Of a DNA stretch of 64,000 bases, positions 15,312 to 35,075 are shown piece after piece. The stretch covers positions 384,001-448,000 of the forward strand of contig OZ242320.1 in NCBI GenBank assembly GCA_965208125.1, in the 5' to 3' direction. How positions within the stretch are numbered: position 1 is the stretch's first letter; the number at the start of each line of letters is the position of its first letter. The notes under the pieces are model-generated. The model was not told the DNA's origin, ran no database searches, and was given only the letters and a program-made list of their open reading frames with translations. A program made the translations under genes and the position numbers. The stretch comes from Candidatus Latescibacterota bacterium. GTDB lineage: Bacteria; Latescibacterota; UBA2968.

Positions 15312-15872
15312 TCATCCCTGTTTATCAGTGGTTCTAAAAACACTCTGTAATTCAATCAATGCTGTCTCTGCTGTATCTTCGGGCGTGTGATCATTTGTCG
15401 AGGTTGCAAACGCATCTGCACGCGCATAAAAACGCTCTCGCTCTGCCATCATCACCTCAATTTTGTTTTTCAAACTCTCATCATCCAGCCTGGCCAGCAA
15501 GGGCCTTTCATCGCGCTTGCGGCTGACCCGTTCAAAAATCGTATCGACAGAAGCGCGAAAACAAATACAAACGCCTGTCTTGCGAATAACCGCCCAATTT
15601 CGCTCCTGCGTAATAGCACCACCGCCGAGAGAAACGACCACATTGCTCATCTTCGATGCCACGACAACTGCCTGGTGTTCCAACTGGCGAAATGCGGTCT
15701 CACCGTCTTGTTCAAAAATCTCGGGAATAGTTTTCCCAGCAGCATCGACCAGCAATTCATCTGTATCGACAAAGGTCCGCTTCAACCACCCGGCCAAAAT
15801 GCGCCCGACTCTGGTTTTCCCAGTAGCCATAAAACCGGTGAGGAATATGGGTTTATCAGGTAGATCAAACAC
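15312..15872 (-). CDS. aroK: Shikimate kinase
   Basis: GFMATGKT, DTD, GETAFR, GGGA, RPLL. Confidence 0.95.
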   Translation of the reverse strand: MFDLPDKPIFLTGFMATGKTRVGRILAGWLKRTFVDTDELLVDAAGKTIPEIFEQDGETAFRQLEHQAVVVASKMSNVVVSLGGGAITQERNWAVIRKTGVCICFRASVDTIFERVSRKRDERPLLARLDDESLKNKIEVMMAERERFYARADAFATSTNDHTPEDTAETALIELQSVFRTTDKQG

Positions 15873-15894
15873 AGCACTCTTCCACTATACGGTA

Positions 15895-17601: not shown

Positions 17602-17626
17602 AAAAGACTACCTCTCCTCCTGTTCC

Positions 17627-18091
17627 CTATTTCAAAATATCCAAATCCAAAATTTTCTGTACATCGGCCTTCACTTGCGCGGGCACGCGAAACCGATAGC
17701 TCTTGCGTTGAGAAATGAGTTCCAAATCGCGCTCTGTGCGCCACACATATCTCGAAAAACGCTGCCAGGGCATGTAGCGCATACCCATCAGCAATCCGCG
17801 CGTGCTCATGGTCACGCGAATAGTAGCATACGCGATATAAAAAAACTCGAGAGAAAGCAAAAAGCCGAACAATTGCGGCACGAATCCCACACCATCTGAG
17901 ATCGCAGCCCCTCGAAACAGCACAATCCCTCCCGTCACAATCAAAAGCACATCCCATCGCTTTTGCAAAAAAACCACCACAGGCTCCTGCGCATTGGACA
18001 CATGACGCCGCAATCGCCAATAGGCCACAATAGACGCGCCCAATAAAACGGGAGCGAGAATCAACACAATTTGTATAAGTGTCAAAGACAT
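17627..18091 (-). CDS. Hypothetical membrane protein with a PH-like C-terminal tail
   Basis: Three hydrophobic segments then a GLL...PWxxF tail; packed between ubiE and argS. Confidence 0.6.
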   Translation of the reverse strand: MSLTLIQIVLILAPVLLGASIVAYWRLRRHVSNAQEPVVVFLQKRWDVLLIVTGGIVLFRGAAISDGVGFVPQLFGFLLSLEFFYIAYATIRVTMSTRGLLMGMRYMPWQRFSRYVWRTERDLELISQRKSYRFRVPAQVKADVQKILDLDILK

Positions 18092-18092
18092 G

Positions 18093-18854
18093 TTACGTTT
18101 TCGACGCCAGATAAATGGTTGCAATCCCAAAGCTCAACCGAACCGCCTGTATATCGACAAATCCTGCTTCAAATAACCAATCACAAAAATCATCACCTTC
18201 GGGAAAACGCATCACAGATTCGTACAAATAGCGGTAGGCATTCGGATCGCGGGAGACCATGTGTCCAATACGAGGCAAAATACGTTGAAAATAAAAATTG
18301 TAAAGGCCGCGGAACACAGGGATTCGCGGCCTTGAAAACTCCAGCACAGCCACACGCCCACCCACCTTGAGCACGCGGCACATCTCGCTCAGGGCCGTTT
18401 CCAATTCGGCCACATTGCGAATGCCAAATCCGATTGTCACGCCGTCAAATGTCTCCTCACCAAAGGGGAGACTCTCCCCATCGCCACACAAAAACGCGAC
18501 CGGATTTGCTCGCGATGCATTTTTTTTTGCGCCCTCGCGCAACATCGGCATTGAAGGATCGACACCGATCACCTGAATATTGCCAGCGCGCTTGCCGCAT
18601 TCAAACCCCAAATCGCCCGTACCCGTAGCCAGGTCTAAAATGCGCCAGTTTGGCCCGGGTCGCAATCGGTCAACAGTCTTTTTTCGCCAAACAATATCAA
18701 CGCCCATGCTCAACAGGTGGTTGAGCAAATCGTATCTGCGGGCAATTCCGTCGAACATCTGACGCACAAAAGCGCGCTTGGCTTCTGGTTCGAGCAACAC
18801 ATCGCGCGCGATACCCGCAGGATTTTTAGGGCTATGCCTGTGTTCACCTCTCAT
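18093..18854 (-). CDS. ubiE: UbiE/MenG demethylmenaquinone methyltransferase
   Basis: FDGIARRYDLLNHLLSMG, LDLATGTGD, FGIRNV, AYRYLYES; start uncertain. Confidence 0.93.
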   Translation of the reverse strand: MRGEHRHSPKNPAGIARDVLLEPEAKRAFVRQMFDGIARRYDLLNHLLSMGVDIVWRKKTVDRLRPGPNWRILDLATGTGDLGFECGKRAGNIQVIGVDPSMPMLREGAKKNASRANPVAFLCGDGESLPFGEETFDGVTIGFGIRNVAELETALSEMCRVLKVGGRVAVLEFSRPRIPVFRGLYNFYFQRILPRIGHMVSRDPNAYRYLYESVMRFPEGDDFCDWLFEAGFVDIQAVRLSFGIATIYLASKT

Positions 18855-19722
18855 TTTTTGTGCCGACCCGTTTGACAACGACATCTTTCATCACATCAGT
18901 CGGTGGCTCAACACCCGTCCAGATCGCAAAAGAACGCGCGCCTTGAAAAACCAGCATATCCAGTCCACCAAAAGCCGGTGCGCCAACCGACTGAAACGCG
19001 CGCATCAACTGCGTTTCCAGCGGATTGAACACCGTATCATAGAGCACCAAATCCGGATGGACAGCGCGTGCATCGGCAAGGGGTGAGGCATTGACCTCGG
19101 GATACATCCCCAGCGAAGTGGTATTCACAACCACGCCCGCATCGACAAACGCCCTGCACTGCGCATCGGCATCCAGCGCGCCCACATTCATTTTTGTACC
19201 TGTTATTTTTTCCATATCCAGCGCCAGCGCCTCTGCGCGCTTAACCGTGCGATTCAAAATTGTCACCCGCTGCACCTCGTCTTGCGTCCCCAGCGCATAC
19301 GCCACAGCGCGGGCCGCTCCACCTGCGCCGAGCACCACACAATGCGCGGGAAATGTCTCAACCCCCGCAATATCGCGCAATGCCCTCAAGACGCCATAGA
19401 CATCCGTATTGTATCCGACCAACTCATCTTCTTCGCGCGAAATAGTATTAACCGCCCCCACGGCCAGCGCTTCGGCTGAAATGCGGTCCATGTGTTCCAT
19501 CACCGCCAGCTTGTGCGGAATAGTTACATTTAACCCGCGAATATTCAACCCGCGCAACCCCTTCATCGCCTCGCCCACGCGGTCGGGCAACACGTGAAAA
19601 GCCACATAACAATAATCCACATCTAATGCGGCGATCGCGGCATTGTGCATATCGGGAGAAAACGAATGAGCCACCGGGTCGCCAATAACGCCCAGCACCT
19701 GACTTGTTGCGCGAATACTCAT
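18844..19722 (-). CDS. aroE: Shikimate dehydrogenase
   Basis: HSFSP, NVTIPHK, GAVNT, NTD, GAGGAARA, GLDMLVFQG. Confidence 0.96.
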   Translation of the reverse strand: MSIRATSQVLGVIGDPVAHSFSPDMHNAAIAALDVDYCYVAFHVLPDRVGEAMKGLRGLNIRGLNVTIPHKLAVMEHMDRISAEALAVGAVNTISREEDELVGYNTDVYGVLRALRDIAGVETFPAHCVVLGAGGAARAVAYALGTQDEVQRVTILNRTVKRAEALALDMEKITGTKMNVGALDADAQCRAFVDAGVVVNTTSLGMYPEVNASPLADARAVHPDLVLYDTVFNPLETQLMRAFQSVGAPAFGGLDMLVFQGARSFAIWTGVEPPTDVMKDVVVKRVGTKNER

Positions 19723-19877
19723 CAAGACCTTCGATTGCCATCCAGCAAATCATTCACAAACTCATCAGCGATATCAAAACTCTCTCTCCACGAGCAACCA
19801 TACGTATAGCGTATAAATGCCACACCGCCCAGGATCATCAAAATCGCAAAGAGCGCGAGCTTAAAAAGTATCTTCAT
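19722..19877 (-). CDS. Small (51 aa) single-TM protein
   Basis: MKILFKLALFAILMILGGVAFIRY...; RBS GAGGTGA; ATGA overlap with the aroA-like stop and TGATG overlap with aroE. Confidence 0.65.
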   Translation of the reverse strand: MKILFKLALFAILMILGGVAFIRYTYGCSWRESFDIADEFVNDLLDGNRRS

Positions 19878-20533
19878 ATCTTCACCTCTTTTGGTTGAAC
19901 AACAGTAGATAAACAGGCAAATAACCCGGCGAAATCGCGGCACATATCGCCCGTATTTGACACCTTCGTTTCGCCTTCGGCTGCCAATCCCGCAAGTGCA
20001 AAAGTCAATCCCGTATGGGCATCACCGCCGGCATCGACCTCTATTCCCTCAAGACGCACAGGCCCCTGCACAACCAGGCCATCGGGCATTTCGCCTACCT
20101 TAGCCCCCATTTGACGCAAATTTTGGATTGTCAATGATAGGCGATCGATCTCTCCCTGACGCAACCCCTCTCCATCCCGAATAACCATTTCACCTGCTGC
20201 CTGTGTGCCCAACACAGCGAGAAATGGCACTTCACGAATAAATAGATCCGTCTGCTCACCCCCGATGCGCGTGCGCCGCAATTCAGACCCCTGGACTTTA
20301 ACCGTACGCGTCACTTTTGCCTTTGATCGCGTCACCTGAATATCCAATTGTGCATTCAACCGCCGCAACAAATCCAATGCGCGGCGGGTCTTCCAATCAT
20401 CGCCCACGCAGTGAAGAGTCAAATCCGACTGCGATAACATCGCCGCAGCACCGAGCAAATACAGCGTAGTCTCGGCATCCCCCGGAACATCGCACTCCCC
20501 AATAAGCCCACGCGCTTCTTTTACCTCATACAT
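19874..20533 (-). CDS. Half-size AroA (EPSP synthase) homolog, single domain, catalytic motifs degenerate
   Basis: 219 aa; N-terminal LIGECDVPGD joins directly to the C-terminal half of AroA; IDE->IRE, KE->GE, DHR->DAH. Confidence 0.75.
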   Translation of the reverse strand: MYEVKEARGLIGECDVPGDAETTLYLLGAAAMLSQSDLTLHCVGDDWKTRRALDLLRRLNAQLDIQVTRSKAKVTRTVKVQGSELRRTRIGGEQTDLFIREVPFLAVLGTQAAGEMVIRDGEGLRQGEIDRLSLTIQNLRQMGAKVGEMPDGLVVQGPVRLEGIEVDAGGDAHTGLTFALAGLAAEGETKVSNTGDMCRDFAGLFACLSTVVQPKEVKI

Positions 20534-20544
20534 TTTTTATCCCT

Positions 20545-21654
20545 CTAACGCAACCGCACTTGGTAACCCGCATCTCGCAAAATATCGATAGACCGCTCGG
20601 CTTCCTCCTGCTGCCCAAATCCCATCCGAATCGTTCCTCCTTCGCCTTCGCGCACCTTTAGCACTTCAATATCCTCAATATTAATTCCTTCGGCAGATAG
20701 CCGCGAGGCAACATCGGCAATCACACCGGGTTTGTCCTCCACCACCAGCAAAATTTCGTGAAGCGGGTGCAAAAATCCCTTGGAATCTCTGGGAATCTCT
20801 CCGCGAATGCGATTCGCATAGTCAAAATCTTCCGATAACGCTTCCCGATCCACCTTATCTCGTATCGCCACAAGCGCGTCGAGATATGCATCGATCATCT
20901 CTCGAATAGGACCGGCATTCGTCTGACAAATATCTCGCCACATCGCAAACGGACTGGAGGCAATACGCGTCAAATCGCGGAACCCACCCGCTGCCATTTG
21001 CAGGGGAAGACCATCGGCCTCATTGAGCCTGCCCACCAATCCCACGAGTGTGGTAGCCATCATCTGCGGCAAATGGCTCACCGTCGCAGCGACCCGATCA
21101 TGGGTCTCGGCCTCCATACGCATAGAACGCGCACCAATGCATTGCACCAGTACTGCAAGCGCATCCACAATTTGATCGGGAACACCGCTTGCGGGCGTAA
21201 GCACATAAAGCGCGTTTTCAAACAAAAAGGGATCGGCTGCGCCCACGCCGCTCTTTTCCGACCCCGCCATGGGATGCCCGCCCACAAAATGCACATCTTC
21301 ACGCGCGACCCGTTCCGCACATGCGACAATCGCGCCCTTGGTGCTACCCACATCTGTGATAATACAACCCGGCGAGGCCGCTTGCACAACTGTGGGCAAC
21401 TGCTCCAGAATACGCACAATGGGCGAACACAAAAATACCAGATCTGACCGCTTTACGCCATTGTCCATTGCGTCGTATTCATAGCCACTGTCGATCACAC
21501 CGAGCGCACGGGCCTCTCGCAGGGTCTCCGCGCGGCTAATACCAATAATCTCGCGCCCAATACCCAGTCGTTTAAACGCCAGCCCCAGTGACCCACCAAT
21601 CAACCCCACACCCACAATGGCAATCGCGGCATCTCTAAACGGAGGATCATTCAT
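20545..21654 (-). CDS. tyrA: Prephenate/arogenate dehydrogenase with ACT domain
   Basis: GVGLIGGSL, DVGSTK, GGHPMAGSE, SHLP, GGFRDLTRIASS, C-terminal DKPGVIA ACT domain. Confidence 0.95.
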   Translation of the reverse strand: MNDPPFRDAAIAIVGVGLIGGSLGLAFKRLGIGREIIGISRAETLREARALGVIDSGYEYDAMDNGVKRSDLVFLCSPIVRILEQLPTVVQAASPGCIITDVGSTKGAIVACAERVAREDVHFVGGHPMAGSEKSGVGAADPFLFENALYVLTPASGVPDQIVDALAVLVQCIGARSMRMEAETHDRVAATVSHLPQMMATTLVGLVGRLNEADGLPLQMAAGGFRDLTRIASSPFAMWRDICQTNAGPIREMIDAYLDALVAIRDKVDREALSEDFDYANRIRGEIPRDSKGFLHPLHEILLVVEDKPGVIADVASRLSAEGINIEDIEVLKVREGEGGTIRMGFGQQEEAERSIDILRDAGYQVRLR

Positions 21655-21668
21655 ACAAATAACCTACC

Positions 21669-21908
21669 CTACATAAACCGGGACACGGATTCGTCACGAT
21701 TTGCTTTTGGGATAGAAACACCGTCCTCCCGGTAACACTCTTTCATCAACTCCCATGCTGCTTTCAATTCAACTAACGCCTCGTCAGGCGTCTGTCCAAA
21801 AGCCGAGACATTGGGAAGTTCCACGAAATGGGCGAGATAATCGCCATCTTCATCCAGAAACATCTTAACTGTGAATCCATCGAAGTCGTCCTGATTATTA
21901 TTTTTCAT
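21669..21908 (-). CDS. hicB: HicB-family antitoxin (short form)
   Basis: DEDGDYLAHFVELPNVSAFGQTPDEA; no DNA-binding tail. Confidence 0.85.
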   Translation of the reverse strand: MKNNNQDDFDGFTVKMFLDEDGDYLAHFVELPNVSAFGQTPDEALVELKAAWELMKECYREDGVSIPKANRDESVSRFM

Positions 21909-22143
21909 TTTTTGTCTCCCAATGATATTGTCTCAAAAATTGTCGAACCTGATAGCCCTTGGACATGGTACGATTGGGTTGGACTACGAGTCGGTACCCG
22001 TCGGGAGAGTACCAAACACGATGGCTTCCTCGCTGGCGGCGTTGCGTCCATCCGCATTGACGCAGGAGTCTTTCAAACTCCCTGAATTGCAAACCATTAG
22101 GATTTCGCTGAGCTTTGTCGAGCAAGGCTTCTCTTTGATCCAT
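21898..22143 (-). CDS. hicA: HicA-family toxin
   Basis: GWTQRRQRGSH motif, KGYQVRQ. Confidence 0.88.
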   Translation of the reverse strand: MDQREALLDKAQRNPNGLQFREFERLLRQCGWTQRRQRGSHRVWYSPDGYRLVVQPNRTMSKGYQVRQFLRQYHWETKNEK

Positions 22144-22201
22144 GCTGTCATTCTATTGAGTCCGCTTTTGGATAAACTTATGCTATAGTTGTTTCTTGCC
22201 T

Positions 22202-23227
22202 CTAAACCAAATCCGCCAGATCTTTCACAAACACTTCCGTGTCTTCCCACCCCAGGCACGGGTCAGTGATGGATTTCCCGAATATCCCTTCTTCGGGTTT
22301 TTGCGCGCCCTCCTCCAGATAACTCTCCACCATCAACCCGCGCACCACATTGTGAAGAAGCGGGGAATGGCGGCGGCTGCGCATCACCTCAAGACCAATG
22401 CGTGGCTGTTCGGAAAAAGTTTTATCTGAATTATTGTGATTGGTATCCACGATAATCGTCGGATTGCCCAACTTGCGCGCCAGGTATTGCTCGGCAACAT
22501 GCATCAAATCTTCGTAGTGATAATTGGGAATACTCCGCCCATTATACGACACCCCGCGCAACACCGCATGCGTCAACGAATTACCCGACGTACTGACTTC
22601 CCATCCATTGTGAAAAAACACATGCGGCATTTGCGCTGCATAAATGGCATTGAACATCACATCCAGATCGCCACCCGTCGGGTTTTTCATGCCCGCAGGC
22701 ACATCGACACCGCTAATGGTCAAGCGATGATTCTGATTTTCAACAGACCGCGCCCCCACGGCAATATAACTCAGCAAATCCTCCACATAGGGCAAATTCG
22801 AAGGATAGAGCATCTCATCGGCAGCCGTCAAATGCGACTCGCGGAAAGCGCGAATCTGCATCTGCCGAATCGTCTTAATCCCAACAACCATATCGGGCAT
22901 ACCTTTGGGATCGGGCTGATGGGCCATGCCCTTATACCCTTCGCCAGTCGTGCGCGGCTTATTGGTATAAATCCGCGGCACGAGCACCAGCTTGTCCATC
23001 ACCTGCTCTTGAAGCTGCGCCAGGCGATTCACATATTCACACACCGCATCGACATTGTGAGCCGAGCAAGGACCAATAACCAACAAAAACTTATCGCTCT
23101 TGCGCTCAAAAATAGCCCGAATCTCGGCATCGCGTTCATCCTTCTTAGCCTTCAAATCATCGGGCAGTGGCAAAACATCCTGGATTTCTTCTGCACTGGG
23201 AATGGGCTGAATCCGTTTGAAACTCAT
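22202..23227 (-). CDS. DAHP synthase, class I-alpha
   Basis: IGPCSAH, KPRTTGEGYKG, GARS, GMKN, DTNHNNS, SITDPC. Confidence 0.95.
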   Translation of the reverse strand: MSFKRIQPIPSAEEIQDVLPLPDDLKAKKDERDAEIRAIFERKSDKFLLVIGPCSAHNVDAVCEYVNRLAQLQEQVMDKLVLVPRIYTNKPRTTGEGYKGMAHQPDPKGMPDMVVGIKTIRQMQIRAFRESHLTAADEMLYPSNLPYVEDLLSYIAVGARSVENQNHRLTISGVDVPAGMKNPTGGDLDVMFNAIYAAQMPHVFFHNGWEVSTSGNSLTHAVLRGVSYNGRSIPNYHYEDLMHVAEQYLARKLGNPTIIVDTNHNNSDKTFSEQPRIGLEVMRSRRHSPLLHNVVRGLMVESYLEEGAQKPEEGIFGKSITDPCLGWEDTEVFVKDLADLV

Positions 23228-23240
23228 AATAGTACCTTTT

Positions 23241-23522
23241 TTAAGACTCTGAATCTAAGTGATCTTCTTCCAACCGCAATGACTCATCGATAATCTGCCT
23301 AAAAATGCGTTGCGCTGCTTCGTGACTCAAAGGACCGCCATTCAATTCGCGAATGCGGTTGAGAATCAGAGTTTCTCGTTCAGGGACATGAAAGGGCAAA
23401 CCCTCGGCACGCTTAATTTTTCCCACAGACAGGGCACACCGGGCACGCTCATTGAGCAACTCGAGAATCTGATCATCTAAGGCATCAATTTTCTCGCGCC
23501 AGAAATCCAGATCCTTCTCCAT
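23241..23522 (-). CDS. Chorismate mutase (AroQ class)
   Basis: REKIDALDDQILELLNERA, PERE, IFRQII. Confidence 0.92.
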   Translation of the reverse strand: MEKDLDFWREKIDALDDQILELLNERARCALSVGKIKRAEGLPFHVPERETLILNRIRELNGGPLSHEAAQRIFRQIIDESLRLEEDHLDSES

Positions 23523-23525
23523 AAC

Positions 23526-24329
23526 CTACACACCCTCTCCTAAAGGGCCGATCAAAGACCCGACAAAAGCACCCACCTTTGCAACCAGATCGGCATCGTG
23601 TTGGTACTCGCCAACGCGACGCACAATCGCGCTACCAACCACAACCGCATCGGCATATCGCGCAATGTCCGACACATGCTCGGGCGTTGAAATACCAAAC
23701 CCAACGGCAATGGGCATATCTGTGTACTGGCATATCGCAGACACCTTGCTTTGAATTTCATCAGCCAGAGAATCGCGCTCTCCCGTCACTCCTGTGCGCG
23801 ACACATAATAGACGAAACCCCTCGTATGCGACGCAATCAGCTTCATCCGATCATCGCGCGTAGTCGGTGTCACGAGAAAAATCGTATCCAGCCCATGCAC
23901 ATCCATCTGCGCCTTGTAATCGCTGCCCTCTTCCGGAGGCAGATCCAGCATCAGAACACCATCCACCCCCACATCTGCAGCGCGTTTTACAAAGCGCTCC
24001 ACACCGTAGCGATGAATCGGATTGTAATACGTAAACAACACAATGGGGATTTCGGTCTCATCCCGCACATCTGCAACCATAGACAACACGCCCTCGAGCG
24101 TTGCACCAGCGGCCAAAGCGCGTTGTGACGCCTCCTGAATCACGGGGCCATCAGCCAGAGGGTCTGAAAAGGGAACACCCAATTCCAGGACATCCACACC
24201 TCGCCGATCCAATTCCAACACCACCTGATGCGTGGTATTTAAATCCGGATCACCCGCCGTAATATATGCGACAAAGCCCGTCCTGCCCGCTTTTCTCAAG
24301 TCTTCAAATCGCCGTCCAATCCGCGTCAT
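23526..24329 (-). CDS. trpA: Tryptophan synthase alpha chain
   Basis: [27 protein letters not shown]. Confidence 0.98.
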
Positions 24330-25531
24330 CTCACTCCTTCTATAAACCGCGCCGCCTGTTGCACATCTTTATCTCCGCGTCCCGATAAATTGACAACCAC
24401 AATCTGATCTCGACTCATCTCCGGAGCCAGCTTGCAAACATGGGCAATAGCGTGTGAACTCTCCAAAGCGGGAATAATCCCTTCGGTATGACTGAGCAAC
24501 TCAAAAGCACTGAGCGCTTCCTCATCCGTCGCATACGTATAAGCCGTACGAGACATATCCCGCAAATAGCAATGCTCTGGCCCCACGCCCGAATAATCGA
24601 GACCAGCCGACACCGAATGTGTCAATGCGATTTGCCCATCATCATCTTGCAACACATAAATGCGCGCACCGTGCAAAACCCCCAAATCGCCGCCATTAAA
24701 CCGCGCGGCATGCTCGCCAGACTCAATACCGTGCCCGCCAGCCTCCACGCCGATCATCTGCACATCGGCATCATCCAAAAAAGCGTGAAACAACCCGATA
24801 GAATTGCTTCCCCCGCCCACACATGCGACGAGCACATCGGGCAATCGGCCTTCTCTCTCCAAAATTTGAGCACGGGCTTCAACGCCAATAACCCGCTGAA
24901 AATCGCGCACAATCATCGGATACGGATGCGGTCCCAAAACCGAACCAAAAATGTAAAACGTATCCTCCACATTGGTCACCCAGTCGCGAATAGCCTCATT
25001 AATCGCATCCTTAAGGGTTTTACTACCCGAATGGACACCCGTAACTTTCGCTCCCAAAAGCCGCATGCGAAACACATTGAGCGCTTGCCGTTCCATATCT
25101 TCAACACCCATGTAAATTTCGCATTTGAGACCGAACATCGCAGCCACAGTTGCCGTTGCCACGCCGTGTTGCCCGGCACCAGTCTCGGCAATAATCCGCG
25201 TTTTGCCCATTCGGTTGGCGAGCAAAATCTGCCCCATGGCGTGATTGATTTTATGCGCTCCCGTATGGGCGAGGTCTTCGCGCTTGAAATAAATTTTAGG
25301 CCCGCCGAGTTCTTCTGTCAACCGCTCCGCAAAATAAAGCGGCGTGGGCCGCCCGACATAATCGCGCAAATATTGATCCAGTTCAGCCCAAAAATCGGGA
25401 TCCCGCTTTGCCTCCTGATAAGCCGCCTCCAGGTCTTGCAACAGCGCCATAAGCGTCTCGGGCACATACTGCCCACCATAAGGCCCAAAATGCCCGCGCG
25501 CATCGGGCAAATCACTCGCGTTTACAGCCAT
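24326..25531 (-). CDS. trpB: Tryptophan synthase beta chain
   Basis: [28 protein letters not shown]; start reset to MAVNAS. Confidence 0.98.
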
Positions 25532-25544
25532 ATTGTATATCCCC

Positions 25545-26522
25545 TTAAATATCACCAACCACGCGGTCATAAAATGCCAGATACTGATCGCAGTCATCAC
25601 CATCGAGCAATGCCATTGCCTCGCGGGGATGCTGGTTGTGCTGGCCCGTGATGTTATAGGGCACCAGAGGTCCCCACGTCATTTCGCTGCGCAACTTGAC
25701 AAAATGATCTTCCAGCAACTTATAGACGGGACGGATCTTAAACTTGGGATTCCGCAAAAAACCGAGCAATAATTCCATGGGACAATTGCCCGCACCGCGC
25801 CCCAATCCATCCACTGTAGCGTCAATCCGATTGGCCCCTAAAATAATGGCCTCAATAGTATTGGCAAATGCCAGTTGCTGATTATTGTGCGCGTGAATAC
25901 CCACCTCTTTGCCCGAGCCTTTGGTCGCTTCCATGTATTTTCGCACGAGCATATCGACCTGCTCGCGATACAGCGCACCGAAACTATCTACAACGCAAAT
26001 CGTGCCCACAGGGGTTTCCATCAGCACCTCTAACGCCTGATCAATCTCGACATCTTGCACCGTCGAAATCGCCATAATATTACAACTCGTTTCATACCCC
26101 TTCTCGTGGGCATCGAGCAACATTTCGACAGTCTCGGGAATCTGCTCGACATAACACGCCACGCGCACCATATCGACCACGCTCTCGCTGGCTGGCAGAA
26201 TATCTTCGGCCCAATCGCTTTTGCCCGCATCGGCCATAATTGCGAGTTTCATCCCTGTCGCTTCGGGATCGTGATCCCCAGTAATTTTGCGAATATCCTC
26301 TTCATCGCTGTGGCGAAACGCACCAAAATCTCTTTTGGGGAACATCTCCTTGGAGTTTCGGTACCCAATTTCCATATAGTCAACACCCGCCGCGACACAG
26401 GTTTCATACACGGCCTTCACAAAATCATCATCAAAATGATGATCATTCATCAAACCGCCATCGCGGATCGTACAATCGAGGACCTTGAGTTCCGGGCGGT
26501 AAGTAATCCAGGGGGCTTTCAT
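25545..26522 (-). CDS. DRE-TIM metallolyase (HMGL-like / 4-hydroxy-2-oxovalerate aldolase-like)
   Basis: [27 protein letters not shown]. Confidence 0.85.
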
Positions 26523-26569
26523 AAAGAAAATCCTTTCTTAATTTGAGAAATCGACAAAATGATCATACC

Positions 26570-27481
26570 TCATTGACTGTGAACAATGTAAATATGACTG
26601 GAATAGTTCATATTCCGATTGGCCTTGAGATTTGAAATAAAACCTGTGACAAAAGCTTTGATGAGCGCTATGGAACCGTGCTTCCCCTTGTTTTTGTATT
26701 TCTCGCTGAGGAGAGACACGTAAAAAGCGTCCAGTTTCATAGGTATCTTTTCCCGAATCACAAATCTCTGGTTGGACAACAGCCTTTGTAAAGTCGAGTG
26801 AGAAAAATGCCAGAAGTGTCTGGGAACATCATAACCTGCCCAGTATTTGCCATAATATTGTGCATCAAAAGATTCGAAATTGGGCACAGCGATAAAAATC
26901 AGCCCATCATCAGCGAGTAATAACTTCAGATCAGCGAGCAACTTATTGGGATCCGGTACATGTTCCAGCACATGCCACAGTGTGATCACATCCAACTTTT
27001 TGTGCTCTATATCCTCTAACTTTTCTCTAACCAAGCGTCTTCCTGGCCCCAATAACTGGTTGGCTCTATCTCTCGCCAGGGCAGATGGTTCCATCCCCAG
27101 AACCTCCCATCCGCGCTTATCCATATAGGCGAGAAATTCTCCGGATCCACAACCATAATCGAGTAATCTTCCCTCTTTTTTTTTTCTTGCGATAAGCCGA
27201 TATTTCCATCGGAGAGTACGTGTTCTCACTCCTAAATAGATGAAATCCAGGATGCTTTGAGTTTTTCCTGTATGGGATATGTAATCGGGTGATTCATAAA
27301 AGTTGTGAATGCATTTCGCATCTGGCCGTGGATTGGTAAAATGAAAATTACAAAGAACACACTTTTGTATGTCAAAATGCTCATGGCTATAAGTATAGTC
27401 TTCACAGGTCAGAACATTCTCAAATTCCTTTCCCTTGCATACAGGGCAGATTTTTAACAGTTCCTGCTGCAATCCTTTCAT
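26570..27481 (-). CDS. Class I SAM methyltransferase with N-terminal Zn ribbon
   Basis: CPVC..CVLC, LLDYGCGSG, WHVLEH, YDVPRH; visibly more AT-rich than its neighbours. Confidence 0.88.
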   Translation of the reverse strand: MKGLQQELLKICPVCKGKEFENVLTCEDYTYSHEHFDIQKCVLCNFHFTNPRPDAKCIHNFYESPDYISHTGKTQSILDFIYLGVRTRTLRWKYRLIARKKKEGRLLDYGCGSGEFLAYMDKRGWEVLGMEPSALARDRANQLLGPGRRLVREKLEDIEHKKLDVITLWHVLEHVPDPNKLLADLKLLLADDGLIFIAVPNFESFDAQYYGKYWAGYDVPRHFWHFSHSTLQRLLSNQRFVIREKIPMKLDAFYVSLLSEKYKNKGKHGSIALIKAFVTGFISNLKANRNMNYSSHIYIVHSQ

Positions 27482-28743
27482 CACGCCGACCACCTGACCA
27501 GAAAGTAGCGGCGTTTACCGCGGCGCATCACCAGGTATTTACCAGCCAGTCTTTCAGAAGGCTCTAAAATATAGCCCATATCTGTACACCGTTGCCCATT
27601 GATATAAATGGCACCGGTCCTGATATCTTCGCGGGCTTGTCGCCTGGACGATGAAATCCGCGCATCCACGAGCAAATCTATCAAACCCACTTCATCAGCA
27701 CCATTGAGCGCGTAAGATGGCACATCGCTAAACCCTTCCGCAATCTCCTGTTCATTCAAATCCCGCAAATTGCCGTAAAACAGCGCCTCGGAAATATGCA
27801 CGGCGCGGGCCTTTGCGGCTGCACCGTGGATAAAAGTTGTCACCTCTTCGGCCAACACGCGCTGCGCCTCGCGCTTCTCGGGCCTCGCCTGCACTTCTCG
27901 TTCCAATTCCTCTATGCGTTCACGGCTCAAAAAAGTGAATAACTTCAAAAATTTCACCACATCGCGATCTGCTGCATTCACCCAAAACTGATAAAACTGA
28001 TAGGGCGATGTCCTTTCGGGATCGAGCCATAATGTTCCCGTCTCAGTCTTGCCAAACTTTGTCCCATCCGATTTTTCCAGCAACGGGAAAGTCAACCCAT
28101 ACACAGTCTTATTGAGCATGCGCCGACACAACTCTATGCCCGCCGTAATATTGCCCCACTGATCGCTACCCCCGATCTGAAGCTCACAGCCATACTCCCG
28201 GTTCAACTCCATAAAGTCATACGCCTGCAAAACCATATAACTAAATTCAGTAAAAGAAATCCCGGTTGAAAGACGCGACGACACCGACTCTTTGCCCAGC
28301 ATATATCCCATTGAAAAGTGTTTGCCCACATCGCGCAAAAATTCAATCGTACGCAACTCTGAAAGCCAGGTATAATTGCTCACCATCAGTGCCGAATTGT
28401 GCACAGCCTCAAAATCCAGATACTTTTCCAATTGCGCGCGCTGGCGCTCGGTATATGCCTGCACCACCTCCAGTGAATTCAACTGTCGCTCTTCTGCTTT
28501 CCCACTCGGATCGCCAATCAATCCCGTGCCACCACCCACGAGTGCAATGGGCTTGTGCCCCGCATCTTGAAAACGACGCAATCCCATAATAGGAACCAGA
28601 CTGCCCGCATGCAGACTATCGGCAGTGGGATCAAATCCACAATACAATGTCATCTGTCCCTCTGCCAAACGCCTGCGGAGCCTATCCTCATCTGTCATCT
28701 GAAAAATATAGCCACGAAATGCCAAATCGTCTAATACATCCAC
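27481..28743 (-). CDS. tyrS: Tyrosine--tRNA ligase
   Basis: YCGFDPTADSLHAG, GGSDQWGNI, KFGKT, S4 tail. Confidence 0.98.
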   Translation of the reverse strand: MDVLDDLAFRGYIFQMTDEDRLRRRLAEGQMTLYCGFDPTADSLHAGSLVPIMGLRRFQDAGHKPIALVGGGTGLIGDPSGKAEERQLNSLEVVQAYTERQRAQLEKYLDFEAVHNSALMVSNYTWLSELRTIEFLRDVGKHFSMGYMLGKESVSSRLSTGISFTEFSYMVLQAYDFMELNREYGCELQIGGSDQWGNITAGIELCRRMLNKTVYGLTFPLLEKSDGTKFGKTETGTLWLDPERTSPYQFYQFWVNAADRDVVKFLKLFTFLSRERIEELEREVQARPEKREAQRVLAEEVTTFIHGAAAKARAVHISEALFYGNLRDLNEQEIAEGFSDVPSYALNGADEVGLIDLLVDARISSSRRQAREDIRTGAIYINGQRCTDMGYILEPSERLAGKYLVMRRGKRRYFLVRWSA

Positions 28744-28764
28744 GTTTTTATCTCCATATTCATA

Positions 28765-29373
28765 TCACGCCTTTACGCGCGCCAAAAAATCCTTCACTTT
28801 TTTGTGATCCTTCTTCCCCGGCTCGGCTTCTACGCCACTACTCGTATCCACCGCATACGGACCAACTCGCTCAATCGCCTCCCGAATATTATCCGGATTT
28901 AGCCCACCGGCAAGAATAATGCGCCCATACTCTTTTGCCTCCACCGCCTTTGTCCAGTCAAATATCTCCCCTGTACCGCCGTAAGAACCCGCTTTCTCTG
29001 TATCCAATAAGAAAGTATTGACCAGATATGATAGCAGAGTCTGCACATTGAAATCGCGTCCCACGCGAAGCGCGCGAATCACCGGAACCGCATGCCCCAG
29101 ACACGCTTCGGGCGGCTCATCCCCGTGCAATTGAATCGCCCGCAGCCCCGCCAACTTCACGGCTATATCAATCTCTCGCTCCGATGCATTTACAAACACC
29201 CCTACAGGAGTCACAAATGGCGGCAAATCAAAAATAATTTCTCCGGCTTTCTCGGGTGCGATATAGCGAAGACTCTTCTCGTAAAAATTAAATCCCAGAG
29301 CATCCGCGCCATTATCAACCGCGCACAGCGCATCATCCCGATTTGTAACACCGCAAATTTTAGCTCGCACCAT
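28765..29373 (-). CDS. trpF: Phosphoribosylanthranilate isomerase
   Basis: KICG, QLHGDE, LAGGL, DTSSGVE. Confidence 0.97.
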   Translation of the reverse strand: MVRAKICGVTNRDDALCAVDNGADALGFNFYEKSLRYIAPEKAGEIIFDLPPFVTPVGVFVNASEREIDIAVKLAGLRAIQLHGDEPPEACLGHAVPVIRALRVGRDFNVQTLLSYLVNTFLLDTEKAGSYGGTGEIFDWTKAVEAKEYGRIILAGGLNPDNIREAIERVGPYAVDTSSGVEAEPGKKDHKKVKDFLARVKA

Positions 29374-30154
29374 ACCCCATCAACTCCTTCAACTTGGCGG
29401 CAATATCCGATTCTCGCATCAAACTCTCGCCCACCAGCACGGCATCTGCGCCCGCATCTCGAAGCGCGACAACATCCTCGCGCGTATAAATACCGCTTTC
29501 ACTCACCTTCAAAACCTCATCGGGTATGTGATCGATCAATCCATAAGTCGTATCCAGAGACGTATCAAAAGTTTTCAAATTCCGATTGTTAATCCCAACA
29601 ATCTCTGCCCCAACATCGAGCGCTACCATCAGTTCTTCTCTCTCGTGCACCTCCACCACCGCATCCAGCCCCAATGCCCGACTCGTCGCTATAAATAAGG
29701 ACAATTCTTCAGGCGTTAAAATCGACACAATCAACAACACAGCCGATGCCCCAATCGCACGCGCCTCGTAAATCTGATAGGGATCAATCGTGAAATCCTT
29801 TCGCAAAATGGGCCGATCTACAACTGTTGAAATCTGAGTCAAATAATCTGCCGACCCCTGAAAAAATTTCTCATCCGTCAATACCGAAAGCGCCGAAGCC
29901 CCATTTTTCACATAAACCTTCGCAATATCCACCGCGTCAAAATCCCCTCGGATCACGCCCTTAGATGGCGAAGCCTTTTTGACCTCGGCGATCACAGCAA
30001 TATCGTCCCCATCTATCAGCCCATCAAAAAACGAAGGCGGTTCTGGCACATCTTCTGCCAATCGCGCCATCTCTTCAAACGGCGTCTGCGCCATACACCT
30101 GGCGAGAAATTCGCGTTTATACGCCACAATTTTATCGAGAATATTGCCGGCCAT
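29360..30154 (-). CDS. trpC: Indole-3-glycerol-phosphate synthase
   Basis: IAEVKKASPSKG, SVLTD, LRKDF, GINNRNL, SESGI. Confidence 0.98.
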   Translation of the reverse strand: MAGNILDKIVAYKREFLARCMAQTPFEEMARLAEDVPEPPSFFDGLIDGDDIAVIAEVKKASPSKGVIRGDFDAVDIAKVYVKNGASALSVLTDEKFFQGSADYLTQISTVVDRPILRKDFTIDPYQIYEARAIGASAVLLIVSILTPEELSLFIATSRALGLDAVVEVHEREELMVALDVGAEIVGINNRNLKTFDTSLDTTYGLIDHIPDEVLKVSESGIYTREDVVALRDAGADAVLVGESLMRESDIAAKLKELMGYGAS

Positions 30155-30179
30155 AAAGTCCCACCATCCTCAGACAGTG

Positions 30180-31244
30180 CTAAAGCCACGACCGCGGATC
30201 GGGAACGGACACCCATCCATTTTCGCGCACCGCCTGCAATCCCGCAATACCCGGCAGTGTCATATCCAGCGCCTGCATCAAATCTATCGGCGATCGCAAT
30301 CCATTCGCAATCGCCTGCACAAAATCCAAAACAATGAGCATACTCGTTTTGCCGTGCCCTGCACCGAGTGCGTCCGAAAACTGGGACAACTCGGGATGGC
30401 AACATACTTCTCGCGTTACCTGCTCTTTATTCCCCACCGAATAATAACACACCGTTCGGGCTTCGCGAAATCGCCCCGTCTCTAAAGAACCCTCATCGCC
30501 ATAAAAACTCAAAAAATGGCTCATCCCATGCACATTCTGAAACGAATTTGTCAACCTGAACACCGCGCCTTCTTCCGTTCGAAACAAAGCCGTCTGCACC
30601 CAATCTGCTTCATACCCCTCTAAAAATTCATCCCGCCCTGAAGCTGAAACAGCCATGACCTCAACCAGACGATCACCCGTCATATTCAAATACGGCGACG
30701 TCCCATGTGTCGGATAAAGAAGGGGTTGCAAACTATTCCGCCAGGTAGAACGCCCATCGGGATGTCGTCTCAACGCTTTTAGACCGTGAATATACTCGGC
30801 TTCAGCATAGTAAATACGCCCCAATTTCCGCGCTTCATAAAGCGACCTGGCACGCACCACACTGGGTTCATAGACCCAATTCTCAGCCATCATATAAATG
30901 CGGTCACTTTTTGAAACAACCTCAACCAATGCCTTTGCCTCATCCATAGTCAACGCAGCGGGCACAGCACACAAAACGTGCTTACCGGCCCGAATCGCTC
31001 GAATCACATGTTCTGCATGAAGTGGCGCGGGCGTAAAAATAGCCACCGCATCAATCCGTTCATCAGCGACAAAATCATCAAAAGCCGCATAACAAGCATC
31101 GACACCCAACTGATCTTTCGCCTCGTCCTGTCTCTCTTGTTGGATATCACAAATAGCGACCAACTCAGTTCCAGCATACGCATCAAACACCCGCGCCCAG
31201 GACATGCCAAATCGCAAACCAGCAACACCTACTGAGAGAGCCAT
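30180..31244 (-). CDS. Gfo/Idh/MocA oxidoreductase
   Basis: N-terminal Rossmann fold, HVIRAIRAGKHVLCAVP, YAEAEY, YPTH. Confidence 0.88.
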   Translation of the reverse strand: MALSVGVAGLRFGMSWARVFDAYAGTELVAICDIQQERQDEAKDQLGVDACYAAFDDFVADERIDAVAIFTPAPLHAEHVIRAIRAGKHVLCAVPAALTMDEAKALVEVVSKSDRIYMMAENWVYEPSVVRARSLYEARKLGRIYYAEAEYIHGLKALRRHPDGRSTWRNSLQPLLYPTHGTSPYLNMTGDRLVEVMAVSASGRDEFLEGYEADWVQTALFRTEEGAVFRLTNSFQNVHGMSHFLSFYGDEGSLETGRFREARTVCYYSVGNKEQVTREVCCHPELSQFSDALGAGHGKTSMLIVLDFVQAIANGLRSPIDLMQALDMTLPGIAGLQAVRENGWVSVPDPRSWL

Positions 31245-31259
31245 TTTACCTCACTCCAA

Positions 31260-32273
31260 TCATTCTCGACTCGCCGCGACCAAACCCTCCAACTTCTCCA
31301 ACGCCTTGCCCGAATCAATCACTTCAGCCGCGACCTGCACGCCTTCGTTCAAATCACGCGCCTTATCGCCCGCCACAATTGCCGCCGCCGCATTCAACAA
31401 AACAATATCGCGCCGAGGCCCTTCTTCGCCATTCAGAATCGACCGCGTAATCTCCGCATTATAATCGGCATCCCCGCCTTTTAGCGCGTCGGCTGGAGCC
31501 TGAGCCAGCCCAAAGTCCCCAGGTACTACATCATACGTCGAAACCGATCCATTTTTTAATTCACTCACCCTCGTCGGCCCCGTCAGCGTCATCTCATCTA
31601 AACCATCCGAACCGTGAACCACAAACGTCCGCTCCGCTCCCAGAGTCCCCAAAACACTCGCGAGTGTCTCAGTCAATGCCGCGCTGTACACGCCGATCAC
31701 CTGCCGCTTTGCGCCAGCCGGATTGGTCAGCGGCCCCAGCGCATTGAAAATGGTCCGCGCACCAATTTCCCGACGCGGCCCAATCGCGTATTTCATCGCC
31801 CCGTGTAACGAAATAGCAAACAAAAACCCAATCCCCACATCGTCCAGACACCTGCTCACCGTCTCGGGCGACGCCTCAATATTCACACCCAATGCACTCA
31901 GCACATCCGCGCTACCGCTTTGACTCGTCGCCGCGCGATTGCCGTGTTTGGCCACACACAAACCCGCCCCAGCCGCGACAAATGCCGCCGTCGTCGAAAT
32001 ATTAAACGTGCCCGAATGATCGCCCCCCGTGCCACAAGTATCGACAATCACATCGTGCTTTGTCACAATAGGCGTTGCCTTCTCGCGCATCACAGACGCG
32101 GCCCCGGCAATCTCATCAACACTCTCCCCCTTCACGCGCAACGCAATCAAAAGCGCGCCGATCTGCGCATCTGTCGCCTCGCCCGACATAATCTGATTCA
32201 TCGCATCTGTCATCTCACCCCGGCTCAAATCTTCGCCTTCGATCACTTTTGCAATCGCCTCTTGTATGTTCAT
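31260..32273 (-). CDS. trpD: Anthranilate phosphoribosyltransferase
   Basis: [26 protein letters not shown]. Confidence 0.98.
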
Positions 32274-32309
32274 ACTCATCTCCTCGGTCAAAAAAATTTG
32301 AGGATAAGC

Positions 32310-32873
32310 TCACGCATTGAGAAAATTTTGCAGCAAATTCTTACCTTCACCCGTCAAAATCGATTCTGGGTGAAACTGCACGCCATCTACAGCCATATCT
32401 CGATGGCGCAAGCCCATAATCACGCCATCATCGGTCTCTGCCATAATTTCCAGACAATCGGGAAGGCTGTCTCTCTCCACTATCAAAGAGTGATAGCGCG
32501 TGGCAATAAACGGCTCAGGTAATCCCTGAAAAATAGACTCTCCGCTATGATGAATCTCCGACACCTTCCCGTGCATAATCGTCGGCGCGCCCACAATTTT
32601 CCCACCAAACGCCTGTCCAATAGATTGATGTCCCAAACAAACCCCTAAAATTGGAATTTTTCCTGCAAAATGCTGTACCAGAGCCACGGAAATCCCCGCT
32701 TCGTTTGGCGTGCACGGCCCCGGAGAAATCACGATCTTCTCGGGCGCAATATCCGCAATCTCTTCGAGGGAGATCTGATCATTGCGATATACCACCAGAT
32801 CCGCACCCAGTTCGCCGAGATATTGAACGAGGTTATAAGTAAAAGAATCGTAATTATCAATGACGAGAATCAC
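32310..32873 (-). CDS. trpG: Anthranilate synthase component II
   Basis: [27 protein letters not shown]. Confidence 0.96.
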
Positions 32874-34345
32874 AACAACTCTCCTCCCTCAGCCATTTCT
32901 ACCGCCCGAAACAATGCTCGTGCTTTGTTCACGGTCTCCTGATATTCGTATTCAGGCTCGGAATCGAACACCACGCCACCCCCTGCCTGCACATACGCTT
33001 TGCCATCCTTAATCACCATCGTGCGAATGGCAATGCACGTATCCATATTGCCCGCAAAATCGATATAACCCACCGCACCGGCATAAGGCCCGCGGCGCGT
33101 TGGCTCCATCTCGTCGATAATCTCCATCGCTCGAATCTTCGGTGCGCCCGACACTGTACCAGCCGGATAACAGGCAAAAAGCGCATCCAGCGCATCGACA
33201 CCCTCGTGCAATTCGCCGCGCACATTCGAAACGATATGCATCACATGTGAATAGCGTTCAATCGTCATCTGCTCGGTCACGCGCACCGTATCAAACTTTG
33301 AGACGCGCCCCACATCATTGCGCCCCAAATCCACCAGCATAATATGCTCGGCGCATTCTTTTTCATCGGCCAACAACTCCTGTGACAGTACCTGATCCTC
33401 TGCCTCTGTTTTGCCGCGCCACCGCGTCCCTGCAATGGGGCGCACCTGCACCACGCCATCCTCTACCCTGACGAGCAACTCGGGCGACGCGCCCACGAGT
33501 TGATGATCTTTTAAATCGACGTGAAACATATAAGGCGACGGATTCACTGTCCGCAACGCCCGATAAATATCCAGCGCATCCACCGTCACATCCATTGCAA
33601 AGCGCTGTGAAGGCACCACCTGAAAAATATCACCTGCCACGATGTATTCCCTACAATGCGCCACCACATCCATATACGCTTCTTTGCTCGTATTTGAAGT
33701 CACCTCGCACGAACTCGTTCCAGGCTTCAGGGATGCATCCACCGGTTGCGCCAGTGTCTCGATAAGTGCATCGATCCGCTTGACTGCATCTGCGTAATTT
33801 GCCTCCAGATCGCCCTCTGTATGCACATTGGCCATCACATGCACTTTGTGCGTCACATTGTCAAACGCCAGCACCGAATCGTAAAAGGAAAAAAATATAT
33901 CGTCAAAATCGAGATCGTCTTCAACTGTCTCGGGAATGCGCTCAATCAAACGCACGGCATCGTAGCTCACATAGCCTACAGCACCACCTGTAAATCGAGG
34001 AAACCCCTCCACATGTTGCGAATGATATTTTTTTAACAACCCCCGCAATACCTCAATAGGCTCCCCTTCAAATATTCGCAGTTCACCCGTCGTCGCATGT
34101 TCAACAAAAATTTTTGTTCCGCGCGAACGAAAAACCAAAAACGGATCCACGCCCAAAAACGAATACCGCCCAATTTGCTCGCCGCCCACCACGCTTTCAA
34201 ACAAAAACGCATGAGACGACTTTGCGCGAATTTTCAAATAGGCCGAAACGGGCGTCTCTGTATCCGCGAGAATTTCTCTTGAAATGGGAACGAGACCACA
34301 GCCTTTGCTCAACTTCTCGACAGTTTTGAGATCGGGTTGAATCAC
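32870..34345 (-). CDS. trpE: Anthranilate synthase component I
   Basis: [36 protein letters not shown]; GTG start. Confidence 0.97.
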
Positions 34346-34357: not shown

Positions 34358-34397
34358 AAAAAAAATAAAAAGGTCGTGAGCAGTTTGCCCACGACCT
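34358..34397 (-). terminator. Intrinsic attenuator terminator upstream of trpE
   Basis: Minus strand AGGTCGTGGGCA-AAC-TGCTCACGACCT followed by TTTTATTTTTTTT. Confidence 0.92.
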
Positions 34398-34423
34398 CGT
34401 ACTTTTATTCTCTTACATCACAC

Positions 34424-34528
34424 TTAAAACGCAGGACAAACCACACTCTTGGACGGGCGGCGATAATAATAATATCGGCCGTCAAATCGACGCCAAAAAT
34501 ACCAGAAGTAGGATGTCAAAACGTTCAT
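34424..34528 (-). CDS. Aromatic amino-acid attenuator leader peptide (34 aa, MNVLTSYFWYFWRRFDGRYYYYRRPSKSVVCPAF)
   Basis: Hand-translated from ATG 34528 to TAA 34424; 6 Tyr, 4 Phe, 2 Trp; lies directly upstream of the terminator; below the ORF-track length cutoff. Confidence 0.88.
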   Translation of the reverse strand: MNVLTSYFWYFWRRFDGRYYYYRRPSKSVVCPAF

Positions 34529-34567: not shown

Positions 34568-34795
34568 TTAGACAAGTTCTTCAGCCGGGATAGTTCTTAA
34601 AAGGGTTTTCATCACTTTTTTTGCATTAAAGATATCAACCAGATAAACCTGATCGTCTTTAAATTCAACAGTAAAACCATCGCCTTCGATCACCTGATCA
34701 GATACACCTCGCATATCTCGCCGAAAAAAAAGAATATTTCCGGTTTCAGGATCGATCTTTTTTTCAAAGAGTTCAGGTCTAAAATTTAAATCCAT
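34568..34795 (-). CDS. Small DUF2283-like putative antitoxin
   Basis: 75 aa, VEF..VYLVDIFNAKK pattern; overlaps its upstream partner. Confidence 0.55.
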   Translation of the reverse strand: MDLNFRPELFEKKIDPETGNILFFRRDMRGVSDQVIEGDGFTVEFKDDQVYLVDIFNAKKVMKTLLRTIPAEELV

Positions 34796-35031
34796 CTTTT
34801 TGTCTTCTGTCGGTTGTCAATAGTTTTTTGATCTGTTCGATAAATTGTAATAAGATTTTTATTGTCCGGATCAATGACAAGAACGAATAGTATGCCCGTA
34901 ATGCGAATGATTTTGATATCGGTGCTTTGAGTTTTGTCGTAGAAGGTGTGTATTGAACTGCTTTTTGTTACAGCATCTGGATCAATTTCATAAAGTTTAA
35001 GTTTATCGAGAGCGTGTTGAGTAAAATTCAT
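34786..35031 (-). CDS. Small DUF4258-like putative RelE-fold toxin
   Basis: FTQHAL start, LITIY, RW C-terminus; AT-rich. Confidence 0.6.
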   Translation of the reverse strand: MNFTQHALDKLKLYEIDPDAVTKSSSIHTFYDKTQSTDIKIIRITGILFVLVIDPDNKNLITIYRTDQKTIDNRQKTKRWI

Positions 35032-35045: not shown

Positions 35046-35075
35046 AAGATAACAAATTCTAAAACAAATTGTCAA
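35046..35075 (-). promoter_or_regulatory. Sigma70-type promoter for the toxin-antitoxin pair
   Basis: TTGACA-18 nt-TATCTT with extended TG; AACAAATT direct repeat overlapping the spacer. Confidence 0.55.

Follow-up and report, generated by a model that had tools for sequence, protein, structure and literature searches.

A predicted leader-peptide attenuator with tryptophan, tyrosine and phenylalanine codons ahead of the aromatic gene cluster of a Latescibacterota bacterium

Introduction

In the window (the whole 64,000-nt stretch of DNA analyzed here, from Candidatus Latescibacterota bacterium), a short open reading frame crowded with aromatic codons and an intrinsic terminator precede trpE, the first gene of a long cluster for aromatic amino acid biosynthesis. 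An earlier note, made from the letters of the DNA, read this arrangement as a ribosome-mediated attenuator responding to tryptophan, phenylalanine and tyrosine alike. The questions raised by the locus are whether the element is an attenuator at all and, if so, which amino acids it senses.

Results

Organization of the leader region

The features of the locus are listed in Table 1. Translation of the minus strand gives the same peptide as that in the earlier note, with both of its aromatic blocks: codons 7–12 are Tyr-Phe-Trp-Tyr-Phe-Trp (34510–34493), and codons 19–22 are four Tyr. The frame opens with ATG at 34528 and closes with the stop codon at 34426–34424. Aromatic residues occupy 12 of the 34 positions, compared with 8.6% in the long ORFs of the window (binomial p = 1.5e-5). 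Tested by residue type, the enrichment reaches significance for Tyr alone (p = 5.7e-4), the values for Trp and Phe being 0.069 and 0.056.

Table 1. Features of the leader region and the genes behind it (window coordinates; energies in kcal/mol)
Feature	Position	Strand	Details
P1, promoter-like site (TTGACA, 18-nt spacer, TATCTT)	35046..35075	-	10/12 matches; TG ahead of the second hexamer
Two small overlapping ORFs between P1 and the leader	34568..35031	-	81 aa (ATG 35031) and 75 aa (34795-34568)
Leader ORF	34424..34528	-	34 codons and stop; 2 Trp, 4 Phe, 6 Tyr and 5 Arg codons
Segment 1 (anti-antiterminator strand)	34502..34527	-	Codons 1-9; overlaps the first aromatic block
Central hairpin	34452..34483	-	Four Tyr codons (34474-34463) in loop; -10.3 folded alone
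Segment 2 (antiterminator 5' strand)	34425..34442	-	-13.1 duplex with terminator 5' arm and loop
Intrinsic terminator hairpin (segments 3 and 4)	34370..34398	-	13 pairs, 7 G-C, loop 3; -21.3
Terminator T-run	34358..34369	-	Read from sequence and terminator scan
trpE	32870..34345	-	GTG at 34345; Chorismate_bind 6e-96, Anth_synt_I_N 2e-36
Rest of aromatic cluster	13708..32873	-	Same strand, short gaps

The leader start in most relatives is preceded by an AGGA- or GGAG-type box, as judged by eye. The Shine-Dalgarno box of the window's own leader is weak and no good ribosome-binding box is found there, because a two-ORF cassette took the place of the usual one. Neither the 81-aa nor the 75-aa ORF of this cassette matches a Pfam or NCBIfam family above the cut-off. 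The same cassette context is found in loci L005, L009 and L010 and a related one in L016, while most genomes of the genus are without it and carry a P1-like box directly ahead of the leader. In a metatranscriptome contig from a relative, position 35038 directly adjoins 34528, the cassette being missing. The two-ORF unit (34568–35031) may be a small mobile cassette, toxin-antitoxin-like judging from the size and overlap of its ORFs.

On the other side of the leader, the GTG start of trpE follows 12 bases past the T-run in the window, and an AAGGA box lies in between. In the comparison across the genus, the gap between the T-run and trpE comes to 15–18 bases in the window and in 12 of the 20 genomes. 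At L006, L009, L010, L011 and L016, insertions of 30–140 nt made of short repeated units are found between the T-run and trpE, and these look like a small repeat element. In most genera except that of the window, a second strong TTGACA-type promoter-like box (11/12 and 10/12 matches) lies between the terminator and trpE (L029, 1421–1450; L052, 456–485; by eye in L022–L035, L041, L044 and L052–L054), and the attenuator there would thus control only the part of transcription that derives from P1. A stretch of about 50 nt between this second box and trpE is conserved in those genera.

Mutually exclusive helices

The leader of the window is laid out as three mutually exclusive helices (1:2, 2:3 and 3:4), as in classical attenuators. 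The terminator hairpin (3:4) begins about 30 bases past the leader stop. The earlier note had given it 12 bp and a U-tract just before trpE; the hairpin and the T-run stand, and the number of pairs has to be corrected to that in Table 1. In an alignment of 35 sequences (A1), 97.4% of the cells of the terminator pair, and five of its ten pairs are changed on both sides, an outcome reached by 0 of 500 shuffles.

The antiterminator (2:3) was also foreseen in the earlier note as a pairing of 34442–34430 with the 5' arm and loop of the terminator. The duplex energy in Table 1 bears this out, and when the 3' arm is left out of the fold, the antiterminator is the minimum-energy structure (−14.1 kcal/mol). 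When the 3' arm is included, the terminator wins (−30.5 kcal/mol, z −4.2). Segment 2 ends one base inside the stop codon of the leader, and a terminating ribosome would therefore cover it. Segment 1 is the best duplex partner of segment 2 (−11.2 kcal/mol) and is paired with it in the full fold. In all 22 leaders that were folded, segment 1 either overlaps the first aromatic codons or lies immediately before them. In genus g7, segment 1 covers Trp-Arg-Gly-Tyr codons, resembles the terminator arm and pairs with segment 2 at −16.4 kcal/mol.

The whole leader folds at −59.2 kcal/mol (z −2.9 against shuffles). The energy of the antiterminator is unexceptional in comparison with shuffled sequences (z −1.4 for the fold and about 0 with shuffled arms), and that of the 1:2 helix in the window is not significant taken singly; the support for these short helices is conservation, not energy. 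The hairpin around the Tyr codons forms as drawn in the earlier note when folded alone, while the full-length fold keeps its inner part and replaces the outer part. Hairpins with Tyr codons in the loop recur in folds of other genera, and the central hairpin is a candidate for an RNA polymerase pause hairpin.

The helices suggest the following course of events. Transcription would start from P1, and a ribosome would translate the leader while RNA polymerase advances. With charged tRNA plentiful, the ribosome at the stop codon would cover segment 2, so that the 3:4 terminator forms and transcription stops before trpE. A stall at codons 7–12 (within segment 1) or at the Tyr run of codons 19–22 would hold segment 1 and leave segment 2 free; with a footprint of the usual size, a ribosome halted at codons 19–22 would sit between segments 1 and 2. 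Free segment 2 would then pair with the 5' arm of the terminator, giving read-through into trpE and the genes behind it. If the leader is not translated, 1:2 pairing would leave the terminator free to form.

Conservation among relatives

TrpE relatives are present in 61 of the 61 related genomes, and the DNA 5' of trpE was examined in 55 of them. Two of these regions (L017 and L024) are cut by contig ends, and the remaining 53 have at least 300 nt. A leader ORF and a terminator stand before trpE in all 53 (28 of L001–L030 and 25 of 25 of L031–L055), which span 13 genera of four families. The earlier note had advised a search for conserved Tyr-, Phe- and Trp-rich upstream ORFs in related genomes and had regarded a leader that is not conserved as fatal to its reading; such ORFs with the open frame kept are present in 53/53.

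The peptide sequence turns over almost wholly between genera, while the aromatic codons are kept. Each leader has at least one Trp, at least one Phe and at least two Tyr codons (51 unique peptides), and the mean aromatic fraction of these peptides is 0.278 in frame versus 0.082 and 0.080 out of frame. The start-codon heuristic over-extended two of the peptides (L025 and L027). In the pooled leader residues, Trp amounts to 5.3% (background, 1.3%), Phe to 10.1% (4.3%), Tyr to 14.2% (3.1%) and Arg to 16.2% (6.8%). Length differences among the leaders are all frame-keeping, and the stop codon is always at or just before segment 2. Substitutions within genera are distributed over the three codon positions as 14/12/19 and 21/19/25, with no clear third-position bias.

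The best partner of the terminator 5' arm lies over the last 20 or so bases of the ORF and the stop codon in 45 of the 53 regions. In the other eight (L011, L013, L018, L021, L029, L034, L035 and L044), among which are both genomes of genus g2, the strongest partner lies elsewhere. In the 7-pair core of the antiterminator, 89.4% of the cells pair, compared with 28–49% when the core is slid along the alignment. Covariation, which the earlier note had also proposed as a check, is thus seen in the terminator as described above and not in the antiterminator core, which is invariant in the alignment and has 0 compensatory pairs. In L055 (family f3), the terminator and the segment overlapping the stop codon both differ in sequence yet match each other.

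A scan for the terminator-core pattern in one genome per species gave 97 stretches, and the DNA around 80 of them was taken. Of these 80 loci, 30 combine the core with a leader and TrpE, and each of the 30 belongs to this lineage. Ordinary terminators of other phyla, with no leader attached, make up the remaining 50, which means that the terminator core is not specific to the element. One match in Desulfobacterales (L117) has a distant TrpE downstream, with no aromatic leader found in the scan. A scan of the window's genome (G000) for leader-type ORFs before terminators gave 85 raw candidates, and a second attenuator was not found among the nine inspected, which lie inside genes, at gene ends, or ahead of unidentified ORFs.

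Taken together, the ORF, the terminator, the antiterminator and segment 1 make a strong comparative case for ribosome-mediated attenuation before trpE, and we regard the element as very probably a ribosome-mediated transcription attenuator of the classical kind. This reading is based on the observed anatomy, conservation and gene context, from which we infer the stalling logic and the amino acids sensed. The best explanation of the locus as a whole appears to be a classical leader-peptide attenuator heading the aromatic cluster and working by the stalling logic above, an assignment that we favor with clearly less confidence than that of the type of element.

The aromatic gene cluster

Behind trpE, the cluster continues with trpG, trpD, an oxidoreductase gene, trpC, trpF, tyrS, a methyltransferase gene, an HMGL-like aldolase gene, trpB, trpA, genes for chorismate mutase and DAHP synthase, a HicA/HicB-like pair, tyrA, an aroA remnant, aroE, ubiE/menG, an ORF without a known family, argS, aroK and aroB. 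The order trpEGDC ... chorismate mutase, tyrA, aroA, aroE, argS, aroK, aroB is kept in 14 of the 14 genomes sampled from four families. The trp genes, the genes for chorismate mutase and DAHP synthase, tyrA and the shikimate genes follow the leader on one strand in all 14, and tyrS in 12. The family matches in the window and the conserved order agree with the earlier statement that the leader fits the trp, tyrS, tyrA and shikimate genes downstream. The genome has pheA elsewhere, behind another gene and without a leader of its own. In G000, which is 96% complete, no match to the TrpR family and 0 matches to TRAP (PF02081) were found; the Bacillus subtilis control for TRAP was matched.

Several other details of the cluster should be noted. 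A GFO/IDH/MocA oxidoreductase gene lies between trpD and trpC, and the methyltransferase and HMGL-like aldolase genes lie between tyrS and trpB (non-aromatic genes at 30180–31244, 26570–27493 and 25545–26522). The aldolase recurs in 4 of the 14 relatives and the oxidoreductase, at its place, in 0 of 14. Between the DAHP synthase gene and tyrA, a HicA-family ORF (PF07927, E 4e-11) and a HicB-like partner occupy 21669–22143 (minus strand), and no match to the pair is found at the same place in the 14 relatives sampled. The aroA of the cluster (19874–20533, minus strand) is a C-terminal half only, covering model positions 208–396 of 415, and a full-length aroA is located elsewhere in the genome (G000:C1:3387134-3388360). 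The spacing in the relatives suggests that a full-length aroA stands at the cluster position there. The argS gene (15895–17601) belongs to the conserved aromatic cluster in nearly all relatives. In family f3, 46 of the 64 genomes sampled have no TrpE match at E 1e-100 and whole genera are without one (e.g., 0/22 and 0/8), which hints at a lineage-wide loss of tryptophan synthesis, genome completeness being variable.

Amino acids probably sensed by the leader

The earlier note had proposed that the attenuator senses all three aromatic amino acids. This proposal is supported in part: Trp codons are present in all the leaders of the phylum, and Tyr codons are enriched 4.6-fold in leaders and track tyrS. 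Phe is not singled out, being enriched 2.4-fold in leaders. Arg is enriched to the same degree (2.4-fold), and enrichment alone is therefore no proof of sensing. The enrichment of Arg may be structural (CGN codons in stems) or meaningful.

The relation between tyrS and the composition of the leader is as follows. In the 12 of 14 genomes with tyrS within the operon, the leaders have 2–6 Tyr and 1–2 Trp codons. The gene was not found in the operon of two genomes (G053 and G058) or in any of 16 further regions (0/16), 13 of which carry a leader. The leaders without tyrS in the operon (those of G053 and G058 and 13 more of other families) have 1–2 Tyr and 2–4 Trp codons, the latter mostly adjacent in the 13. 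In a wider sample of the phylum, a Trp-rich leader is present in 14 of 20 upstream regions. The terminator filter flagged 11 of these 14, and the other three have, by eye, a hairpin with a shorter T-run; no leader was found in six regions of the sample, from families f6, f9 and f10. The common leader type of the phylum looks Trp-specific, and that of the window's order looks like a derived, Tyr-enriched type coinciding with tyrS and DAHP synthase. Behind the association of Tyr codons with tyrS there are perhaps two independent evolutionary events, one in the clade of f1 and f2 and the other between genera g13 and g16 within f4. Three of the 12 genomes with tyrS in the operon have another type of TyrRS gene at the same operon position (L159, 3093–4316; L162, 14330–15541; L163, 3032–4555) with products 30–34% identical to that of the window; all four match TIGR00234, and the ORF of L163 (507 aa) is apparently N-terminally extended.

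The strongest rival is an attenuator that senses tryptophan only, the Tyr and Phe codons being by-products of a hairpin RNA with an A/U-rich loop and CGG/CCG stems. The Trp-dominated leaders of the other families and classes of the phylum, with their 2–4 mostly adjacent Trp codons, are in line with it, as are the location of the Tyr run in a hairpin loop, the near constancy of its codons within a genus (TAT in all 20 at three columns) and the enrichment of Arg codons, presumably structural, to the level of Phe. Genus g7 speaks against it: either Trp position can be replaced there by Leu, Arg or Tyr, whereas the Tyr and Phe columns are kept, the changes in them being TAT/TAC synonyms or exchanges between Tyr and Phe. 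A constraint at the RNA level could be an alternative cause of this pattern in g7. The Tyr enrichment is, moreover, frame-specific, Tyr-rich leaders coincide with tyrS in the operon, and a stall at four hungry Tyr codons would by geometry leave segment 2 free. We consider sensing of tryptophan only unlikely, though it is the rival to be taken most seriously.

Sensing of Trp and Tyr by the leader is thus well argued from composition and gene content, and that of Phe, for which the case is weaker, is plausible. That the Tyr codons sense as well as the Trp codons seems to us more likely than not; that all three aromatic amino acids act is a tentative proposal, on which we lean slightly to the doubtful side. 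Going further, the leader might be a tunable multi-input sensor in which Tyr codons expanded as tyrS (and DAHP synthase) joined the operon and Arg codons may report the charging of tRNA-Arg for argS. If this is true, one 34-codon frame would register how well as many as four tRNA species are charged, among them those served by two synthetases embedded in the operon. We regard this extension as rather improbable.

A separate gene or another kind of switch

The leader could also belong to a stand-alone small gene, coding for a micro-protein or a small RNA, which has its own promoter and terminator and is a mere neighbor of trpE or acts in trans. The promoter-like box between the terminator and trpE in most genera outside that of the window would suit such a gene, and so would metatranscriptome contigs of relatives that cover the leader. 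These contigs come from four runs of three studies, show 88–99% identity and cover both the leader and trpE; they are assembled contigs, and DNA may be present in the libraries. Among the contig pieces listed from the four runs, none spans the leader, the terminator and trpE on window coordinates. Three contigs end close to the terminator, at 34401, 34396 and 34367; since assembled contigs cannot show RNA ends, this is at most a weak hint of termination. The sequencing runs that contain parts of the window come mostly from sponge, coral and marine metagenomes, with shares below 0.5; the bacterium is probably sponge-associated, and such shares allow no firm habitat.

Against a separate gene, the gap between the T-run and trpE is short in the window and the 12 of 20 genomes of its genus mentioned above, where P1 can feed trpE by read-through only. 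The peptide is not conserved as a protein, and three mutually exclusive helices with a stop codon on segment 2 would be purposeless in such a gene. Furthermore, the element always adjoins trpE, the window's genome containing the terminator pattern in one copy. A stand-alone gene is accordingly a very unlikely explanation.

The spacing of Trp12, Asp16 and Pro24/25 in the leader of the window, which we take to resemble that of TnaC, is present in the window's genus and genus g6 and might point to nascent-peptide arrest by free tryptophan, yet it occurs in family f1 only, is absent from f2, f3, f4 and other classes with the same RNA architecture, and would have the wrong sign, switching biosynthesis on at abundant Trp; we give this explanation hardly any credence. 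Just as improbable is control through a protein or a tRNA, by a TRAP-like, T-box-like or riboswitch mechanism in which the ORF would be incidental: the unusual conservation of the terminator arm and segment 2 across a class could mark a binding site, but the genome has no TRAP family match, a cmscan against Rfam of 33800–35200 (1.4 kb) gave no family at E 0.01 and, with E up to 10, only eight chance-level matches without a leader, T-box or riboswitch family (the best being rli42, E 0.078), and the open frame with frame-specific aromatic codons is kept in 53/53.

Discussion

The classical attenuator reading can be compared with several known systems. The Escherichia coli trpL leader (Rfam Trp_leader, RF00513) shares with the leader of the window a short reading frame with regulatory codons in or next to segment 1, the 1:2, 2:3 and 3:4 helices, a stop codon at which a terminating ribosome would cover segment 2, and an intrinsic terminator just before trpE. 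The window leader differs from trpL in having no sequence or covariance-model match to Trp_leader and in its two Trp codons, which are non-adjacent and outnumbered by six Tyr and four Phe codons. The cluster behind it adds tyrS, chorismate mutase, DAHP synthase, tyrA and shikimate genes, and TrpR was not found in the genome.

Multivalent leaders are known from the thr and ilv operons of E. coli, in which codons for several amino acids are present and shortage of any of them relieves termination. Those leaders concern aliphatic and hydroxy amino acids, whereas that of the window concerns aromatic ones. In the aromatic supraoperon of B. subtilis, the trp genes are part of a larger cluster, and TRAP binds triplet repeats to operate a terminator/antiterminator switch before trpE. 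The window shares with it the placement of the trp genes in a larger same-strand aromatic cluster and the terminator/antiterminator before trpE; the difference is that the genome lacks a TRAP family match and that the switch would be read by a translating ribosome.

Among published leaders, the closest one with mixed aromatic codons is aroR of Corynebacterium glutamicum (Phe-Tyr-Phe), which attenuates aroF, the DAHP synthase operon (Neshat et al. 2014, as described in the review PMC11802643). It is separate from trpL, has no Trp codons and, according to the review, responds to Phe, not Tyr. The leader of the window likewise mixes aromatic codons, but there a single leader precedes the genes for Trp, Tyr and the common pathway. 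The pheM-pheST attenuator of E. coli, also named in that review, places a synthetase gene under a leader with codons for its own amino acid. The location of tyrS behind Tyr codons in the window is similar, except that there the synthetase gene forms part of a biosynthetic operon, with codons for other amino acids also present in its leader.

The earlier note did not recall a described leader of this composition. In view of the mixed Phe/Tyr leader aroR (PMC11802643), this has to be narrowed: no leader with Trp, Tyr and Phe codons ahead of a trp operon was found in the full-text literature, subscription papers being outside its coverage, and within the same coverage nothing was found on gene regulation in Latescibacteria. 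No new principle is involved, as attenuation by leader peptides is well established, and both multivalent leaders and a mixed Phe/Tyr leader have been described.

The finding would extend leader-peptide attenuation to Latescibacterota, a candidate phylum without cultured members. The regulatory element is absent from Rfam and could be modeled and added for annotation. The leaders of the phylum appear to form a natural series in which one RNA scaffold carries Trp-dominated codons without tyrS in the operon and Tyr-rich codons with it, offering a comparative handle on the evolution of attenuator specificity. For the organism itself, the locus suggests that one sensor can govern an entire pathway, from the common trunk to three end products, along with a tRNA synthetase.
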